A stretch of DNA of 24,007 nt from Clostridia bacterium (GTDB lineage Bacteria > Bacillota > Clostridia > Christensenellales > Aristaeellaceae): assembly GCA_045532135.1 (NCBI GenBank), contig JAZSFI010000078.1, forward strand, positions 1 through 24,007, given 5' to 3'. Positions 2,016 through 8,097 of this stretch are shown here, one piece after another (position 1 is the stretch's first letter; each line of letters begins with the position of its first letter). The notes under the pieces are model-generated. The model worked only from the letters and a program-made list of their open reading frames with translations. It was not told the DNA's origin and made no database searches. A program made the translations under genes and the position numbers.

Positions 2016-2882
2016 GTGAAGAAAAACGAAATCATGCTCTCACTTTCCATGGCGATTTTCGGAACGATCTCGCTGTTTGTCAAATCCATTCCGCTCTCTT
2101 CGGGAGAAATCGCATTGTTCCGCGCGCTGCTTGCGCTTGTTTTGATCGGCGGCTATCTGATCGCATCCAAAAAGCCGTTCATGCTTCGCGAAATCAAAAA
2201 GGCGCTGCCGGTTCTGTTTCTTTCCGGCGCAGCAATGGGCGTTAACTGGATCCTTCTTTTTGAGGCATACGATTACACAAGCGTCTCCATCGCGACTTTA
2301 AGCTATTATTTCGCGCCGGTCATTGTCACATTGGCCTGTCCCATATTGTTTAAAGAAAAGCTCACCAAAAAGCAGCTCCTGTGCTTTCTGATGTCCACGC
2401 TGGGGCTTATTCTGATTATCGGCGTATCCGGCTTCGGCGAAGGCAAAAGCGACATAAAGGGAATTTTACTGGGGCTTGGCGCAGCGTTTTTCTACGCAAC
2501 CGTAATCCTGCTCAATAAGTTCACCAAAGGCGTTTCGGGCATTCACAGAACGTTTATACAGTTTTCATCCGCAGCGCTCGTTATTCTCCCTTACGTGCTT
2601 TTCACAAGCGGAATCAATGTTTTCACTTTAAACGCAACGGGCGGTTTATCGCTTCTTGTGGTGGGACTTGTTCATACCGGGATCGCTTACATTATGTATT
2701 TTTCTTCGCTGAAAGAGCTTTCCGGACAAAATGCCGCAGTATTAAGCTATATCGATCCTTTGATTTCCGTCGTCGTTTCGGTCTTGATATTAAAAGAAGC
2801 CATCACGCCCTTTCAGATTGCAGGCGGCGTGCTGATTCTGGTATTCACCTTATTAAATGAGCTTTCGCTCTCAAAGCGATAA
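2016..2882 (+). CDS. EamA/DMT-family transporter
   Basis: ~10 hydrophobic helices in two repeats; SIATLSYYFAPVIV and AAVLSYIDPLISV motifs; probable GTG start after GAGAGGT (ORF track starts 1998). Confidence 0.9.
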   Translation: MKKNEIMLSLSMAIFGTISLFVKSIPLSSGEIALFRALLALVLIGGYLIASKKPFMLREIKKALPVLFLSGAAMGVNWILLFEAYDYTSVSIATLSYYFAPVIVTLACPILFKEKLTKKQLLCFLMSTLGLILIIGVSGFGEGKSDIKGILLGLGAAFFYATVILLNKFTKGVSGIHRTFIQFSSAALVILPYVLFTSGINVFTLNATGGLSLLVVGLVHTGIAYIMYFSSLKELSGQNAAVLSYIDPLISVVVSVLILKEAITPFQIAGGVLILVFTLLNELSLSKR

Positions 2883-2921
2883 CAATGAAAATCACTTGCA
2901 TTAACGTCATTCGGAGGAATT

Positions 2922-3956
2922 ATGGAAAAACGCATGCCGTGGGCGGACGCGCTTAGGGGCGCTCTTATCCTGATGATCGTGTACGGCCATACCGCCTCAA
3001 ACGGCGATTGGCTCAAGCACTATGTGTATTCGTTCCATGTCGCCGCGTTTTTCTTTTTGTCGGGTTTTTTGTTTTCGAAGGGAAAAAGCGGCTTTAAAGC
3101 GTTTATCAAAAAGAAATTTTTCGCTCTCATGATCCCTTACTATATTTTTTCCATAATCAGTATCGTGATTTTCAGTCTTTTAGGCTCGTTTGCATCGGAT
3201 CAGCTGGACGTAACGATCAAGCACAGCGAGGTATATAAAAACGTACTGGGCATGCTGTACGCAAGCGCGGTGGAAGGCTACATGAAGTGGAATCTGCCGC
3301 TCTGGTTTCTGCCGTGCATGTTTGTAACCCAGCTGATGGCCTATCCCATTTCGGATTTCGTAAAAAAATATATTCGAAAAAAACGCATCTTTGCGCCGCT
3401 TCTCATCCTCTTGTCTTTCGTTCTTCCCTTCCTTGACTATTTCGTTTTCCGCATCCGCGCGCTGCCCTTCCATCTGGAATCGGCCGTGTTTCTGATGCCG
3501 TTTTTCTTACTTGGTCTGTGTCTTCGCCAAATCGATTTGCATCCGCGCCCGGACACAATGAAAAAATGGGCTTTGTGCATTTTCCTCCTGTTGTCCGGCG
3601 CTGTGAGCGCATGTTTTTTGAACTCCCGCGTCAATTACTTTCTTTCGTCCTACGGAAAAATCCCCGTTTTCTATCTGTCGGCGATTTTGTCAGTTTTGGG
3701 CATATATATGCTGTTTCAGCGTATATCCAATCCATTGTTATGCCTTGTCGGTCAAAACACGCTGCCCATCTTGCTTATGCATAAATTTCCCGTCGTGTTT
3801 TTCCAGATTGCGCTTTCGCCTCTTTTTAAAAGAAGCGGACCGATCCATATGCTTTCAGCCGTTCTGATTGCATGTATCAGTGTTTTTCTTTGTCTCGTTG
3901 CATCAAAGATTCTCGAAAAATACGCCCCTTTTATGATCGGAAAACAAAACGCATAA
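2922..3956 (+). CDS. Acyltransferase family 3 (AT3) membrane O-acyltransferase, no SGNH domain
   Basis: WADALRGALILMIVYGH, FHVAAFFFLSGFLF and LWFLPCMF are AT3 motifs; RBS GGAGG. Confidence 0.9.
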   Translation: MEKRMPWADALRGALILMIVYGHTASNGDWLKHYVYSFHVAAFFFLSGFLFSKGKSGFKAFIKKKFFALMIPYYIFSIISIVIFSLLGSFASDQLDVTIKHSEVYKNVLGMLYASAVEGYMKWNLPLWFLPCMFVTQLMAYPISDFVKKYIRKKRIFAPLLILLSFVLPFLDYFVFRIRALPFHLESAVFLMPFFLLGLCLRQIDLHPRPDTMKKWALCIFLLLSGAVSACFLNSRVNYFLSSYGKIPVFYLSAILSVLGIYMLFQRISNPLLCLVGQNTLPILLMHKFPVVFFQIALSPLFKRSGPIHMLSAVLIACISVFLCLVASKILEKYAPFMIGKQNA

Positions 3957-3976
3957 TGTTTGTCAGGAGGATGTTT

Positions 3977-4750
3977 ATGGAAAACAAGGTTGTATTGGTG
4001 CTTGTGGACGGTATGCGCCCCGATGGTGTTTTTAAGTGCGGTCACCCTTATGCAAAAACGCTCAAGACGCTTTCTTCCTGGTCGATGAACGCCAAAACAG
4101 TCATGCCTTCGGTGACGCTTCCCTGTCACATGTCGCTTTTTCACTCCGTGAATCCCGACCGCCACGGCGTGACCACCAACACCTATGTCCCGCAGGTTCG
4201 CCCGATTGAAGGCCTTTTTGACCGTCTGGACAGATTTGAAAAAAAGTGCGCGTTCTTTAACACCTGGGAAGAATTGCGCGATCTTTCAAGACCGGATCAT
4301 CTTCACACATATCTTTGCATCAATCAGCATAAGCAGGAGGATACCGACACCAAAATTGCTTTAGCCGCGATCGACTATATTAAAATGGAAAACCCTGATT
4401 TCACGTTTATATATCTCGGCGAAACAGACGAAGTCGGCGGGCACTCGGTCGGCTGGATGAGCGAAGCCTATCTCTCTTGCGTAAACAAAGCTTTTGCCTG
4501 CATTCAGAAAATCCATGAAAGCCTTCCTGACAACTATACGCTTATTGTCACAGCCGACCACGGCGGCCACGACAGAAGCCACGGAACCGATATGCCGGAG
4601 GACATGACCATTCCGGTCATGCTTTCTGGCGCATGTTTTGAAAAAGACAAGGAGCTTCAAAATGTGTCCATCAAGGACATCGCGCCCACAATCGCAAAGC
4701 TTTTAAACGTCTCCCCTGCAAAGGAATGGGAAGGCGCGCCTCTTTTCTGA
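3977..4750 (+). CDS. Alkaline-phosphatase-superfamily hydrolase (type I phosphodiesterase/nucleotide pyrophosphatase-like), probably cytoplasmic
   Basis: DGMRPD, PSVTLPCH (Thr nucleophile position), DEVGGH, TADHGGH metal-binding motifs; RBS AGGAGG 6 nt before ATG 3977; no signal peptide apparent. Confidence 0.88.
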   Translation: MENKVVLVLVDGMRPDGVFKCGHPYAKTLKTLSSWSMNAKTVMPSVTLPCHMSLFHSVNPDRHGVTTNTYVPQVRPIEGLFDRLDRFEKKCAFFNTWEELRDLSRPDHLHTYLCINQHKQEDTDTKIALAAIDYIKMENPDFTFIYLGETDEVGGHSVGWMSEAYLSCVNKAFACIQKIHESLPDNYTLIVTADHGGHDRSHGTDMPEDMTIPVMLSGACFEKDKELQNVSIKDIAPTIAKLLNVSPAKEWEGAPLF

Positions 4751-4772: not shown

Positions 4773-4797
4773 AACGCCCCTCGAAGGGCGTTTTTTT
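4773..4797 (+). terminator. Rho-independent terminator
   Basis: Stem AACGCCC/GGGCGTT with 6-nt loop followed by T-run, 22 nt after the stop. Confidence 0.8.
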
Positions 4798-4966
4798 CAT
4801 GTTCCCGGCTTATTTCCGACCGATTCAGTCAGAATTGTAAAGAAATTTCTCTACATATTAATATCTTGTTTTTGGGGCAGGAATCATTCGCGAATGCGTC
4901 GAATTGGAACAATGCTTACATTTTGCAGCCGAGTGCATTTGCGCCATCGGAGAAAGGAGCTTCGCA

Positions 4967-6487
4967 TTGTCCCACCGCCAAAATTTCTACGAAAAATTCA
5001 GAGAAGCCGCCATGTCGGTCATACCGATCGTGGTTATCGTGCTTGCCCTGTCGCTCACGGTTGTTCCGATATCGCCTGATCTGCTCCTGTCGTTCCTTTT
5101 AGGCGCGGTGCTGCTCACCATCGGCATGGGACTGTTCACCGTCGGAAGCGAAGTTTCCATGACGCAGATCGGTACGCAGATCGGCTCTCACCTGACGAAA
5201 ACCAAGAATCTCAGGCTCATCTTAATCGTGAGCCTTCTTTTGGGTATCGCAATCACCGTTGCAGAACCCGATCTTCAGGTGCTTGCCGCCAACGTTCCCA
5301 ACATCAATACGCTCGTTCTGATTATCACCGTAGCCATCGGCGTCGGCCTTTTTCTGATGGTGAGCATGCTGCGTATTTTATTCAAAATCCCCTTGCGCTG
5401 GCTCCTTATGGCGATGTACGTCGTTGTATTTATTCTGGCTTTTTTTACCGATCCCAATTATCTTTCCGTTGCCTTTGACTCCGGCGGCGTAACCACAGGT
5501 CCCATGACCGTCCCCTTCATTCTCGCGCTGGGTGTCGGCGTTGCCACCATCCGAAGCGACGAAAACGCGCAGATGGACTCTTTCGGTCTTGTTGCACTGT
5601 GCTCCATCGGTCCGATTCTGGCGGTACTCATTTTGAGCTTTATCTATAAAGACGCTCCCGATGCAGCGAGTGCTTCCGTCATTCACGTGCACGAAACCAC
5701 TGTCGGGCTCGGAAAGCATTATCTAACCTCGCTGCCTACCTATATTGGCGAGGTTGTGATGGCGCTTCTTCCGATCGTAGTATTTTTCCTGATTTTCCAT
5801 TTCGTGTCTTTAAAGCTTCGAAAAGTTCCGTTTATGCGCATTGTTCTGGGTCTTATTGTAACGTGCGCAGGTCTGGTTCTTTTCCTTCTGGCAGTAAACG
5901 TCGGATTCTCATCATTGGGGCATGTGCTTGGTGAAAAGCTTGCAGAACCCCATCTTAGATTCCTTCTGATCCCGATTTCGATGATTATGGGCTGGTTTAT
6001 CATCAATGCCGAACCTGCTGTCGCTGTTTTGAACAAGCAGGTGGAAGAACTGAGCGCAGGCGCAATTTCCGGCAAAGCAATGAATTATTCCCTCGCAATC
6101 GCCATTGCCATCGCAAACGGCCTTGCAATGCTTCGCGTAATCACGGGCATATCGATTCTCTGGATTATCGTTCCCGGTTACGCCATCGCGCTGATTCTTG
6201 CTTTCTTCGTGCCTCAGACCTTTACGGCCATCGCGTTCGACTCCGGCGGCGTTGCTTCCGGACCTCTGACCGCTACCTTCATGCTTCCCTTCGCTATGGG
6301 CGCCTCTGCCACTATCGGCGGTAACGTTATGACGGATGCATTCGGTCTTGTAGCGCTGGTAGCCATGATGCCGCTTTTATCCGTTCAGCTTATGGGACTT
6401 ATCTACGTTATTAAGACGCGTAAAGCGCAGCATACCATCGAAATCCCGTTCGCCGAAGACGAAATCATCGAGCTTTGGGAGGTGTAG
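4967..6487 (+). CDS. DUF1538-family membrane protein with two internal repeats
   Basis: Very hydrophobic 506 aa; repeated motifs AEPDLQVLA/AEPAVAVLN, AFDSGGVTTGPMT/AFDSGGVASGPLT, FGLVALCSIGP/FGLVALVAMMP; probable TTG start after RBS AGAAAGGAG (ORF track starts 4904). Confidence 0.85.
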   Translation: MSHRQNFYEKFREAAMSVIPIVVIVLALSLTVVPISPDLLLSFLLGAVLLTIGMGLFTVGSEVSMTQIGTQIGSHLTKTKNLRLILIVSLLLGIAITVAEPDLQVLAANVPNINTLVLIITVAIGVGLFLMVSMLRILFKIPLRWLLMAMYVVVFILAFFTDPNYLSVAFDSGGVTTGPMTVPFILALGVGVATIRSDENAQMDSFGLVALCSIGPILAVLILSFIYKDAPDAASASVIHVHETTVGLGKHYLTSLPTYIGEVVMALLPIVVFFLIFHFVSLKLRKVPFMRIVLGLIVTCAGLVLFLLAVNVGFSSLGHVLGEKLAEPHLRFLLIPISMIMGWFIINAEPAVAVLNKQVEELSAGAISGKAMNYSLAIAIAIANGLAMLRVITGISILWIIVPGYAIALILAFFVPQTFTAIAFDSGGVASGPLTATFMLPFAMGASATIGGNVMTDAFGLVALVAMMPLLSVQLMGLIYVIKTRKAQHTIEIPFAEDEIIELWEV

Positions 6488-6488
6488 T

Positions 6489-7169
6489 ATGGAACTCAAT
6501 CTTGTCATTGCCATCGTTGACCGCGATAAGCGCGAGATGCTTGAAAAAATATCTGAGAGCATTAATGTCCCCCTCTCCCTGATCAGCTTGGGGCGCGGCA
6601 CCGCAACGGATGAGCATCTGTCTTTGTACGGCCTGGCTGCAACAGAAAAGGCTGTGTTATACGCCGTAGCCAACCAGGAAAAAACCGCGCGCCTCATGCG
6701 TGCATCCAAAATCCGCCTGTTTGTTGACATCCCGGGCAACGGCATCATGTTGTCCATTCCGATTAAAAGCGTAGGAGGAGGCCGCACCATGGCATATCTT
6801 ACCGAAAACTGCACGTCCGGAGGCGAAACACCCAAAATGACTTTTGAACACGAACTGATTTACGTCATCTTAAACGAAGGCCATTCCGATATGGTCATGA
6901 ATGCGGCAAGAAGCGCAGGCGCAACCGGCGGCACCGTTATGACCGCCAAGGGAACCGGCGTTAAACAGGGCGAAAAATTCATGGGGATCACCTTGGCAAG
7001 CGAGCGCGACGTCGTTTTAATCGTTGCCAAAAGCGACGTCAAATCCCAGATTATGAAGGCCATCATCGAAAAATGCGGCATCGGAACGCCCGCCGGCGCT
7101 GTCTGCTTCTCCCTGCCTGTTTCCGAAATACAGGGCCTGCATTCCAAAAATGAGGATGCGGAAATTTAA
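6489..7169 (+). CDS. Tandem two-domain P-II (GlnB-like) superfamily protein
   Basis: Two ~100-aa repeats: LVIAIVD...LGRGTA...EKAVLYAV...PGNGIMLSIPI and LIYVILN...AAGATGGTVMTAKGTG...ERDVVLIV...PAGAVCFSLPV; starts 1 nt after the DUF1538 stop with RBS GGAGG. Confidence 0.85.
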   Translation: MELNLVIAIVDRDKREMLEKISESINVPLSLISLGRGTATDEHLSLYGLAATEKAVLYAVANQEKTARLMRASKIRLFVDIPGNGIMLSIPIKSVGGGRTMAYLTENCTSGGETPKMTFEHELIYVILNEGHSDMVMNAARSAGATGGTVMTAKGTGVKQGEKFMGITLASERDVVLIVAKSDVKSQIMKAIIEKCGIGTPAGAVCFSLPVSEIQGLHSKNEDAEI

Positions 7170-7195
7170 GCAAACGGCAAAATGTACTTTTGATG

Positions 7196-7235
7196 AAAAA
7201 TGCAGCTGCAGGCAAAATCTGCAGCTGCATTTTTT
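7196..7235. terminator. Bidirectional rho-independent terminator between convergent P-II-like gene and spoIIP
   Basis: 16-bp perfect inverted repeat AAAAATGCAGCTGCAG / CTGCAGCTGCATTTTT, 7-nt loop, A/T runs on both sides. Confidence 0.85.
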
Positions 7236-8097
7236 ATGTTTCAGTCAGCACACTTTCAAGCGCATCGGCAAGATACGGCATTGCGTCTATTGCCTGGTCA
7301 ATGCTATTTTGGTTGTGACCGACTTCAATCAGCAATGATTTTTCCGACAGATGCTGGTTGTATCTTCCGTCTTTCACCATGACGGGTCTGCACAGCCCCG
7401 GAACCGATTCGTTGATTTCCCCGGTCAGAAGCGTTGCAAGAGCGTAGTTTTCAGTATAATGCATTTCATCATCAAAGCCCTTACCGTTTCCGACCAAACA
7501 CATAAGCCGCGCAAAATCGCCCGCCTCCGTTTTCAGGCTGAACGGATTTCCGCTTGAATCCTTGTAATATGCATCCCTGTGAAGATCGATAAAAACATCA
7601 ATTTCTCCAATGTATTTTTCCATCGTCTGAAGCGATCTCGTATATGCCGTTGAAAGATCCGATAGCTCATGATCGGTTGTATCGTGAATAACGGTAAACC
7701 CACGTTCCGTCAGAAGACGCGCAAGCTCTTCGCCAACTCTGACAATATTGTACTTGTTGTTTTTCGTGCGCCATGCCGAGGTTTCAATATACTCGTCCTC
7801 CGCTTTTTTCTCATATGCTTCGTGCGTATGCGTATGGTAAATTAGAATTTTCAGGTCTTTTTTCTCTTTTCCGACAATTTCCACCTTTACTTTTTCGGCT
7901 TCAACCGGCGCAAAAATGGCGGAAGCGGAGACGTTTACTGCCTCCGCTTCCCATACCGTTTCACGTATTTTATTTTCTTTTGTTGTATTCCTCTCGTCTT
8001 TAAATCCGAATGCGACGATCAGAAGTACCGTGATCAGAACCACAGCTGCAACGCCCATAAGCAAATGCGATGCGCGAACCACATGAATGCGAACCAT
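7234..8097 (-). CDS. spoIIP: Stage II sporulation protein P (peptidoglycan amidase/endopeptidase)
   Basis: N-terminal TM anchor; ILIYHTHTHEAY, NIVRVGEEL, AYTRSL, IDLHRDA, GRYNQHL, LLIEVG motifs. Confidence 0.92.
   Translation of the reverse strand: MVRIHVVRASHLLMGVAAVVLITVLLIVAFGFKDERNTTKENKIRETVWEAEAVNVSASAIFAPVEAEKVKVEIVGKEKKDLKILIYHTHTHEAYEKKAEDEYIETSAWRTKNNKYNIVRVGEELARLLTERGFTVIHDTTDHELSDLSTAYTRSLQTMEKYIGEIDVFIDLHRDAYYKDSSGNPFSLKTEAGDFARLMCLVGNGKGFDDEMHYTENYALATLLTGEINESVPGLCRPVMVKDGRYNQHLSEKSLLIEVGHNQNSIDQAIDAMPYLADALESVLTET

Follow-up and report, generated by a model that had tools for sequence, protein, structure and literature searches.

Few signal transducers are as widespread as the P-II proteins. 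To our knowledge, the complexes they form with transporters are understood structurally for AmtB–GlnK and SbtA–SbtB. Another membrane system, UmpAB from Halomonas (Vreelandella) zhaodongensis, is formed from two DUF1538 proteins, each with seven predicted transmembrane helices. According to the published report, UmpA and UmpB form a heterodimer, complement the antiporter-less Escherichia coli KNabc only when both are present, and together show pH-dependent Na+(Li+,K+)/H+ antiport in everted vesicles (PMC5484666). That work included no P-II protein and, searched by term, neither its report nor a cable-bacteria paper mentions P-II. The subject of the present analysis is a two-gene unit in which the two types of protein are found side by side. 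It lies in a stretch of 24,007 nucleotides, hereafter the window, which is contig JAZSFI010000078.1 of the Clostridia bacterium assembly GCA_045532135.1, and it consists of a gene for a fused double-DUF1538 membrane protein (gene 1) followed by a gene for a tandem P-II-like protein (gene 2). On balance, sequence comparison and structural modelling favour a self-contained operon in which a cation/proton secondary transporter from the DUF1538/UmpAB family is encoded together with a P-II-like cytoplasmic regulator dedicated to it.

The membrane protein resembles UmpAB in its DUF1538 family membership, its predicted fold, its organization as two homologous units of seven transmembrane helices acting together and its AEP and FDSGGVxTGP motifs. 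However, the two units are joined in one chain of 506 residues in the window, whereas UmpAB has two separate subunits. In addition, the identity is only approximately 27–30%, the scores are far under the equivalog cut-offs and a tandem P-II gene is probably translationally coupled to the transporter gene. The likeness to AmtB–GlnK and SbtA–SbtB is one of arrangement, as a transporter gene is followed by a gene for a dedicated cytoplasmic protein of P-II fold, the two being conserved in one operon. The membrane family and fold are nevertheless unrelated to either, and the P-II protein of the window is a tandem with a T-loop shorter by about six residues, has other residues at Q39, K58, K90 and R101 when compared with an archaeal GlnK2, and offers no evident trimer-to-trimer symmetry match with its transporter.

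An earlier note on this DNA, made from the sequence alone, took DUF1538 to have no assigned function. This does not hold, as UmpAB is a published antiporter with its own NCBIfam models and both proteins are in Swiss-Prot. The note's description of the module as uncharacterised survives in part: a functional characterisation exists for the membrane half, in UmpAB work that does not include a P-II protein. No description of the transporter–P-II pairing was found in the literature on DUF1538, UmpAB or P-II-like proteins, and the partnership appears to be undescribed so far.

Family, fold and topology of the membrane protein

The gene 1 product contains two DUF1538 stretches (PF07556; Pfam E-value 1.2e-136, 453 bits against a cut-off of 22.6), and a DUF1538 profile search of the contigs of the source genome gave 240 and 226 bits. 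Aligned with each other, the two halves show 32% identity (E-value 3e-30), which agrees with the doubled protein described in the earlier note. The NCBIfam models for UmpA (NF041627; 164.5 bits against a cut-off of 490) and UmpB (NF041628; 140.3 bits against a cut-off of 500) both score below their equivalog cut-offs, and the protein is a family-level relative of the two. Identity to UmpA and UmpB themselves (Swiss-Prot A0A1X9QDU4 and A0A1X9QDU5) is 30% and 27%, respectively.

The AEP and FDSGGVxTGP motifs are found family-wide and are held across 25 diverse single DUF1538 domains. Both are present in each repeat of the window protein, the second as DSGGVTTGP in repeat 1 and DSGGVASGP in repeat 2 (Table 1). 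An alignment of 65 fused homologues was built and forms the basis of both an AlphaFold2 model and the counts of invariance. Four acidic residues, E100 and D171 in repeat 1 and E349 and D425 in repeat 2, are invariant in all 65. The model (predicted local distance difference test, pLDDT, 88.2; predicted template modelling score, pTM, 0.87) breaks its helices at both AEP and both DSGG motifs, with the four invariant carboxylates at or just before the breaks. The motifs of the earlier note are at the places it gave, and the model interrupts the helices exactly there. Carboxylates at broken transmembrane helices are typical cation/proton sites in secondary transporters.

A Foldseek search of the Swiss-Prot models returned UmpA (template modelling score, TM, by hit 0.80) and UmpB (0.76), each with a probability of 1.00, a comparison in which both sides are predictions. 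These are the sole Swiss-Prot proteins with the same predicted fold, and the matches among the AlphaFold DB fold clusters are DUF1538 proteins only. In the PDB, a sequence-profile search found no relative of the membrane protein, Foldseek found no resembling solved structure (best match E-value 0.037, TM 0.16), and an exhaustive VIA-align comparison gave generic helical bundles with a best Z of 6.4, which is under the noise level stated for helical models by that tool. By these searches the membrane fold would be one without a solved representative, a missing match being weak evidence. Structure prediction and Foldseek, a check suggested in the earlier note, gave a confident model that matches UmpA and UmpB in Swiss-Prot but no solved transporter.

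Lysine and arginine residues were counted for each loop, as defined by the helices of the model, in the 65 fused proteins. The mean counts alternate in opposite phase between half 1 (N-terminus 2.9, loop 1–2 0.1, loop 2–3 3.2, loop 3–4 0.3, loop 4–5 1.0, loop 5–6 0.4, loop 6–7 1.9, C-terminal end 0.5) and half 2 (0.9, 2.8, 1.0, 1.8, 0.0, 0.6, 0.1 and 3.9 for the same segments). The window protein itself has 8 such residues in the N-terminus and loops 2–3, 4–5 and 6–7 of repeat 1 and 1 in the other four segments, while in repeat 2 the corresponding numbers are 3 and 8. In a set of 55 bacterial and archaeal A/B pairs that includes split and fused forms, unit A has a bias of +5.8 ± 2.1 (minimum +2) and unit B one of -6.1 ± 2.4 (maximum -2), so that the two ranges do not overlap. 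Through the positive-inside rule, this opposite bias argues that the two units are oppositely oriented, and the window protein is predicted on these grounds to be a 7+7 inverted repeat whose N- and C-termini are both cytoplasmic. The pseudo-symmetric, transporter-like protein of the earlier note is retained with one correction, which is that the symmetry is antiparallel.

Similar features are known from EmrE-type small multidrug resistance pairs and from Fluc/CrcB, which share adjacent homologous genes, opposite Lys+Arg bias, fused forms and an odd number of helices per repeat. The DUF1538 units are, however, much larger at seven transmembrane helices and have no sequence or fold relation to these proteins. 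Three archaeal genomes of 0.7–1.1 Mb (loci L127, L128 and L129) have one DUF1538 gene and, after it, one P-II gene; the bias of the DUF1538 protein is weak, at +1 to +4. The A/B pair may have had a homodimeric ancestor of dual topology, for which these single proteins are candidates.

Some of these features could also belong to a symporter driven by Na+ or H+, or to a uniporter, with a metabolite or an anion as its solute (for example, bicarbonate, an organic acid or a nitrogen compound). The P-II-like protein would then report carbon, nitrogen or energy status, and the cation/H+ exchange of UmpAB would be a partial or side reaction. The window protein is indeed far under the UmpA and UmpB cut-offs, its carriers are mostly gut anaerobes, not alkaliphiles, and Na+-coupled symporters likewise depend on broken helices that offer carboxylate and backbone sites. 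Moreover, the well-studied P-II–transporter pairs known to us, AmtB–GlnK and SbtA–SbtB, all handle a carbon or nitrogen nutrient. Such a role is nevertheless unlikely, since the only experimental datum for the DUF1538 family is cation/H+ antiport and no fold similarity to SbtA or to another solved transporter was found. Furthermore, the 80 closest loci show no further conserved neighbour beyond the two genes, and hence no metabolic gene that would point to a solute, and no AmtB gene was found in the source genome, which is 75% complete and in 601 contigs.

The P-II-like partner and its linkage to DUF1538

Pfam recognises the P-II family (PF00543; 35.1 bits against a cut-off of 25) only in the C-terminal half of the gene 2 product, at residues 123–216. 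The N domain is recognised via the internal repeat, as the two halves match each other (E-value 4e-7), and by the AlphaFold2 model (pLDDT 84), which consists of two beta-alpha-beta-beta-alpha-beta ferredoxin-like domains with T-loop regions of low confidence. The two P-II repeats seen by the earlier note are thus borne out. For each domain the closest Foldseek match is archaeal GlnK (GlnK1 of Methanocaldococcus jannaschii, 2j9d; E-value 1e-5, probability 1.0). In phmmer comparisons with split systems, the N domain pairs with the first of the two P-II genes and the C domain with the second. The 75%-complete genome yielded no other P-II gene. A link to ammonium transport was considered and set aside, as AmtB was not found in this genome and gene 2 is its only P-II gene.

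The effector site was read from one pairwise HMMER alignment of the C domain with GlnK2 of Methanothermococcus thermolithotrophicus (7p4y), with the numbering and roles of Q39, K58, G87-D88-G89-K90, R101 and R103 as established for P-II proteins. All of these positions are substituted in the C domain (Q39 to K, K58 to E, G87 to A, D88 to G, G89 to A, K90 to V, R101 to G and R103 to H), while the G24-x-x-G27-x-T29 and K34-G35-x-G37 motifs are retained. The T-loop is about six residues shorter than that of GlnK2 owing to gaps of two and four residues, the second of which removes R49–T52 and with it the Tyr51 region. Two hallmarks of canonical P-II proteins, a full-length T-loop with the Tyr51/Ser49 modification region and conserved effector-site residues, are therefore absent. 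P-II proteins linked to DUF1538 form a subfamily of their own, with the signature GRGTGIHE, EPEKE, KPGxGIxF and GIxHL and a short T-loop throughout, and the clade of the window is a derived version of it. With degenerate effector residues and a short T-loop, both the ligand and the mode of docking may differ from those of GlnK and SbtB.

Linkage of the two families was surveyed in samples of genomes. Among 301 Bacillota genomes sampled across the phylum, 108 have DUF1538, and in all 30 of the loci listed one or more P-II genes lie directly downstream. In the archaeal sample, DUF1538 scores above the Pfam cut-off in 32 of 251 genomes, and a P-II gene, usually a single one, is found downstream in 29 of the 30 loci listed. 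The remaining archaeal locus (L147, G521:C1:1177386-1181015) has no P-II detected in the approximately 1.4 kb downstream of its DUF1538 pair. A P-II gene also follows DUF1538 in Natranaerobius thermophilus, in a Bacillus and in an Archaeoglobaceae genome, and the arrangement DUF1538-DUF1538-P-II is present on alphaproteobacterial plasmids (Methylocystis, Chelativorans). A fused transporter with a tandem P-II protein is found in 77 of the 80 closest genome loci, including that of Faecalibacterium prausnitzii ATCC 27768 (L104). Of the other three, one is a truncated contig, one shows an additional DUF1538 match, and in one just a single P-II domain was detected. The dedicated P-II-type partner proposed in the earlier note is therefore upheld, with near-total linkage in Bacillota and archaea and its occurrence on plasmids.

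Split and fused transporters are combined with split and fused P-II proteins in all four possible ways, and the gene order is always A-B-Pa-Pb. This agrees with the earlier suggestion that both partners are derived from ancestral gene pairs. Furthermore, five divergent clusters contain proteins in which repeat B and the first P-II domain form one covalent chain. Of the 150 representative clusters that scored best, all of them two-domain proteins, 8 have a fused double-DUF1538 protein that carries one or two P-II domains as well. Natural transporter–P-II fusions include P0435 (720 residues) and P0466 (709 residues). Both families also occur together in an ESM Atlas cluster (98 members, 712 residues), to which the models of both window proteins align. 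Fusion of a P-II domain to the C-terminus of repeat B, for which a cytoplasmic location is predicted, is consistent with docking at the inner face of the membrane. The tandem, two-gene and fused P-II arrangements argue against a simple homotrimer.

Taken together, the recurrent independent fusions, the fixed order A-B-Pa-Pb and the near-total linkage in two domains of life provide strong comparative evidence for a stoichiometric transporter–P-II complex. The same observations bear on the idea that the P-II-like protein does not regulate the transporter at all, the membrane protein being instead an anchor or a sensor input for signalling to other targets, or the two merely being co-expressed. 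Although the degenerate effector-site residues of the window clade would suit such a role, repeated fusion at the B/P-II junction and of whole units, in a constant gene order and with near-total linkage, makes it very improbable.

Several relatives differ from this arrangement at or near the P-II position. In one fused DUF1538 protein of 724 residues (P0511) a cytidylate-kinase-like/AAA domain takes the place of P-II at the C-terminus. Four others of approximately 610 residues (P0366, P0367, P0376 and P0410) have a C-terminal extension of about 120 residues that matches neither Pfam nor P-II and may serve as a different kind of regulatory module. In the Archaeoglobaceae locus an open reading frame of 78 codons without a Pfam match (L123:2367-2603) lies between the gene for DUF1538-B and the P-II gene.

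Proposed mechanism and cellular role

For the substrate, docking, ligand and direction of regulation of the transporter–regulator operon, we infer the following model. The membrane protein would be a single-chain version of an antiparallel A/B heterodimer with 7+7 transmembrane helices. Helices 3 (AEP) and 6 (FDSGGVxxGP) of each repeat would be the broken helices, whose E100, D171, E349 and D425 form putative cation/proton binding sites. By analogy with UmpAB, the most likely activity would be exchange of a monovalent cation (Na+, Li+ or K+) for H+. The tandem P-II-like protein would dock on the cytoplasmic face near the C-terminus of repeat 2 and may switch transport in response to a small-molecule signal. 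This signal would most likely be an adenine nucleotide, or a second messenger related to one, with a binding mode that departs from the canonical. The regulated, pseudo-symmetric transporter with its own sensor that the earlier note envisaged agrees in outline with the fold, the repeats and the P-II linkage, but the antiport function had already been published.

A number of points weigh against this model. With scores of 164 and 140 bits where 490 and 500 are required, function can be transferred from UmpA and UmpB at family level only. The UmpAB assignment comes from a single study (PMC5484666), which relied on everted vesicles and on heterologous complementation in KNabc and in which no P-II protein was present. 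Several canonical ATP-site residues are absent from the C domain, and its T-loop is shorter. Finally, a cyclic di-AMP (c-di-AMP) riboswitch, discussed below, lies 5' of the operon in only 2 of 70 operons of the phylum sample, and a covariance model built from three Rfam hits found none in the window or in 78 close relatives.

In the wider sense, DUF1538 proteins and their P-II partners may represent a further class of P-II-gated transport complex, the third and an ancient one; this generalisation is put forward tentatively. Antiparallel units of seven transmembrane helices, with a fold for which no solved relative was found, would be combined in it with a specialised subfamily of P-II proteins. 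Through this subfamily, an intracellular nucleotide signal would act on cation/proton or pH homeostasis in alkaliphiles, in archaea and in many gut Clostridia. The series from one P-II gene to two and then to tandem proteins suggests that the P-II trimer could have been remodelled to suit an asymmetric A/B transporter. If correct, this would provide P-II proteins with a new partner family, probably in ion or pH homeostasis rather than in nitrogen or carbon uptake. It would also place the single published DUF1538 function in context, the UmpAB study having expressed the membrane pair without its usual partner. The module is common in abundant gut Clostridia, and a cultured carrier, F. prausnitzii ATCC 27768, is open to genetics. 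The searches made found no solved structure for the transporter fold. The natural single-chain fusions are ready-made constructs for structural work.

The distribution of the family contains hints of physiology. Split homologues are found in named alkaliphiles and halophiles, and DUF1538 is among the gene features of pH adaptation in a machine-learning study (PMC13255231). In the Archaeoglobaceae locus a Kef-like Na_H_Exchanger gene (L123:3143-5140), which also encodes TrkA_N and TrkA_C domains, comes after the module. In two genomes of different families, Rfam c-di-AMP riboswitches (RF00379, gathering score 38) are positioned directly upstream of DUF1538-DUF1538-P-II-P-II operons (L007:221-352, + strand, 84 bits; L032:2952-3079, - strand, 75 bits). 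These riboswitches hint at monovalent-cation or osmotic homeostasis in some lineages and give no evidence on the window locus.

The transporter could accordingly be imagined as part of a c-di-AMP regulon for K+ or osmolyte homeostasis, in which the P-II-like partner is a c-di-AMP receptor like PstA/DarA or SbtB that opens or closes the transporter as c-di-AMP rises. Besides the two upstream riboswitches, the source genome encodes a diadenylate cyclase, UmpAB also exchanges K+ according to its report (PMC5484666), and P-II-like proteins that bind c-di-AMP exist (PMC4475381, PMC8654305). PstA/DarA shares with gene 2 a P-II-like fold in Firmicutes and, through the riboswitch in two relatives, a possible link to c-di-AMP, but it is encoded by a stand-alone gene with no transporter linkage. 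A Pfam scan of the gene 2 product at an E-value of 0.01 or below gave PF00543 only, with no match to the PstA/DarA receptor family. In addition, a riboswitch reflects transcriptional control and not ligand binding by the protein. Given this and the scarcity of the riboswitch, which was not found in the window or in 78 close relatives, such a role is decidedly unlikely for the module, and a general link between the module and the c-di-AMP riboswitch was rejected. A paper on a Borrelia 'PII-like' protein was also rejected as a precedent, as it concerns the unrelated YitT/DUF2179 family.

The third Rfam c-di-AMP hit (L010:2913-3085) was discounted because it is located downstream of the module, where it leads a gene for asparagine synthase; such a gene is unusual among the targets of c-di-AMP riboswitches. 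In that genome (L157, G042:C1:603500-612500), an IS21-type element with IstA-like and IstB genes (160-2531, 2579-3010) truncates the DUF1538-A gene and leaves only profile positions 78-211. A cyclic di-GMP-I riboswitch (L163:514-612, + strand) and a flavin mononucleotide riboswitch (L191:1300-1428, + strand) are found near DUF1538 operons, but on the other strand. Both belong to adjacent genes that diverge from the operons, and neither is linked to the module.

Gene structure and surroundings of the operon

The source genome contains sporulation genes, and its closest relatives are metagenome-assembled genomes of Clostridia from gut and rumen. The features of the operon are listed in Table 1. 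As described in the earlier note, the unit is formed of two genes separated by a single nucleotide and lies between two terminators; the stop and start codons and both hairpins are confirmed by sequence and folding. The upstream terminator is the 5' boundary of the unit. The open reading frame of gene 1 extends from 4904 to 6487 on the + strand and offers two starts, a TTG at 4967, located 7 nucleotides 3' of the Shine-Dalgarno sequence, and an ATG at 5012. The TTG is the most likely start on account of this spacing and of the resulting length of 506 residues, which is that of most close homologues. The 1-nucleotide gap, together with the GGGAGG inside the end of gene 1, indicates that the two genes are probably translationally coupled.

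Table 1. Features of the DUF1538–P-II operon and its boundaries, in window positions
Feature	Position	Strand	Basis
Intrinsic terminator of the preceding phosphodiesterase-like gene (stem 4773–4792, then a U-run)	4773–4799	+	Terminator scan; fold -14.6 kcal/mol, z -4.7
5' intergenic leader with Shine-Dalgarno AAAGGAG (4953–4959)	4800–4966	+	Sequence
Gene 1: fused double-DUF1538 membrane protein, 506 residues, UmpAB family; 14 predicted transmembrane helices, predicted 7+7 inverted repeat	4967–6487	+	Pfam, NCBIfam partial matches, model, Lys+Arg bias
Repeat 1 (A-type, residues 1–240), N-terminus predicted cytoplasmic; invariant E100, D171	4967–5686	+	Repeat match, motifs, model, charge bias
AEP motif, repeat 1	5261–5269		
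DSGGVTTGP motif, repeat 1	5477–5503		
Repeat 2 (B-type, residues 241–506), predicted opposite orientation, C-terminus predicted cytoplasmic; invariant E349, D425	5687–6484	+	Repeat match, motifs, model, charge bias
AEP motif, repeat 2	6008–6016		
DSGGVASGP motif, repeat 2	6239–6265		
Coupling junction: GGGAGG (6477–6482), gene 1 stop TAG (6485–6487), one base, gene 2 ATG (6489)	6477–6491	+	Sequence
Gene 2: tandem P-II-like protein, 226 residues	6489–7169	+	Pfam, internal repeat, model, Foldseek to GlnK1, phmmer matching of halves to split genes
N domain of gene 2 product	6489–6824		phmmer, first P-II gene of split systems
C domain of gene 2 product	6825–7166		phmmer, second P-II gene of split systems
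20-bp hairpin, A-run before, U-run after	7193–7236		Sequence; fold -29.6 kcal/mol, z -7.0
Convergent spoIIP	7234–8097	-	SpoIIP Pfam match

A promoter scan found no consensus sigma-70 promoter on the + strand of the leader. A riboswitch or leader RNA in the same interval was considered and rejected, as the Rfam E-value search returned only sub-threshold matches, over the terminator. RNA runs of four relatives, compared with this DNA at 80% likeness, yielded no more than short conserved stretches that stem from other organisms. The hairpin downstream of gene 2, flanked by its A-run and U-run, is probably a bidirectional terminator that serves both the operon and the convergent spoIIP gene. Upstream of the operon, an acyltransferase-3 open reading frame (2922–3956) and that of the phosphodiesterase/metalloenzyme superfamily (3872–4750), both on the + strand, overlap by 85 nucleotides as listed; the true start of the latter is probably further downstream, near MFMENK.

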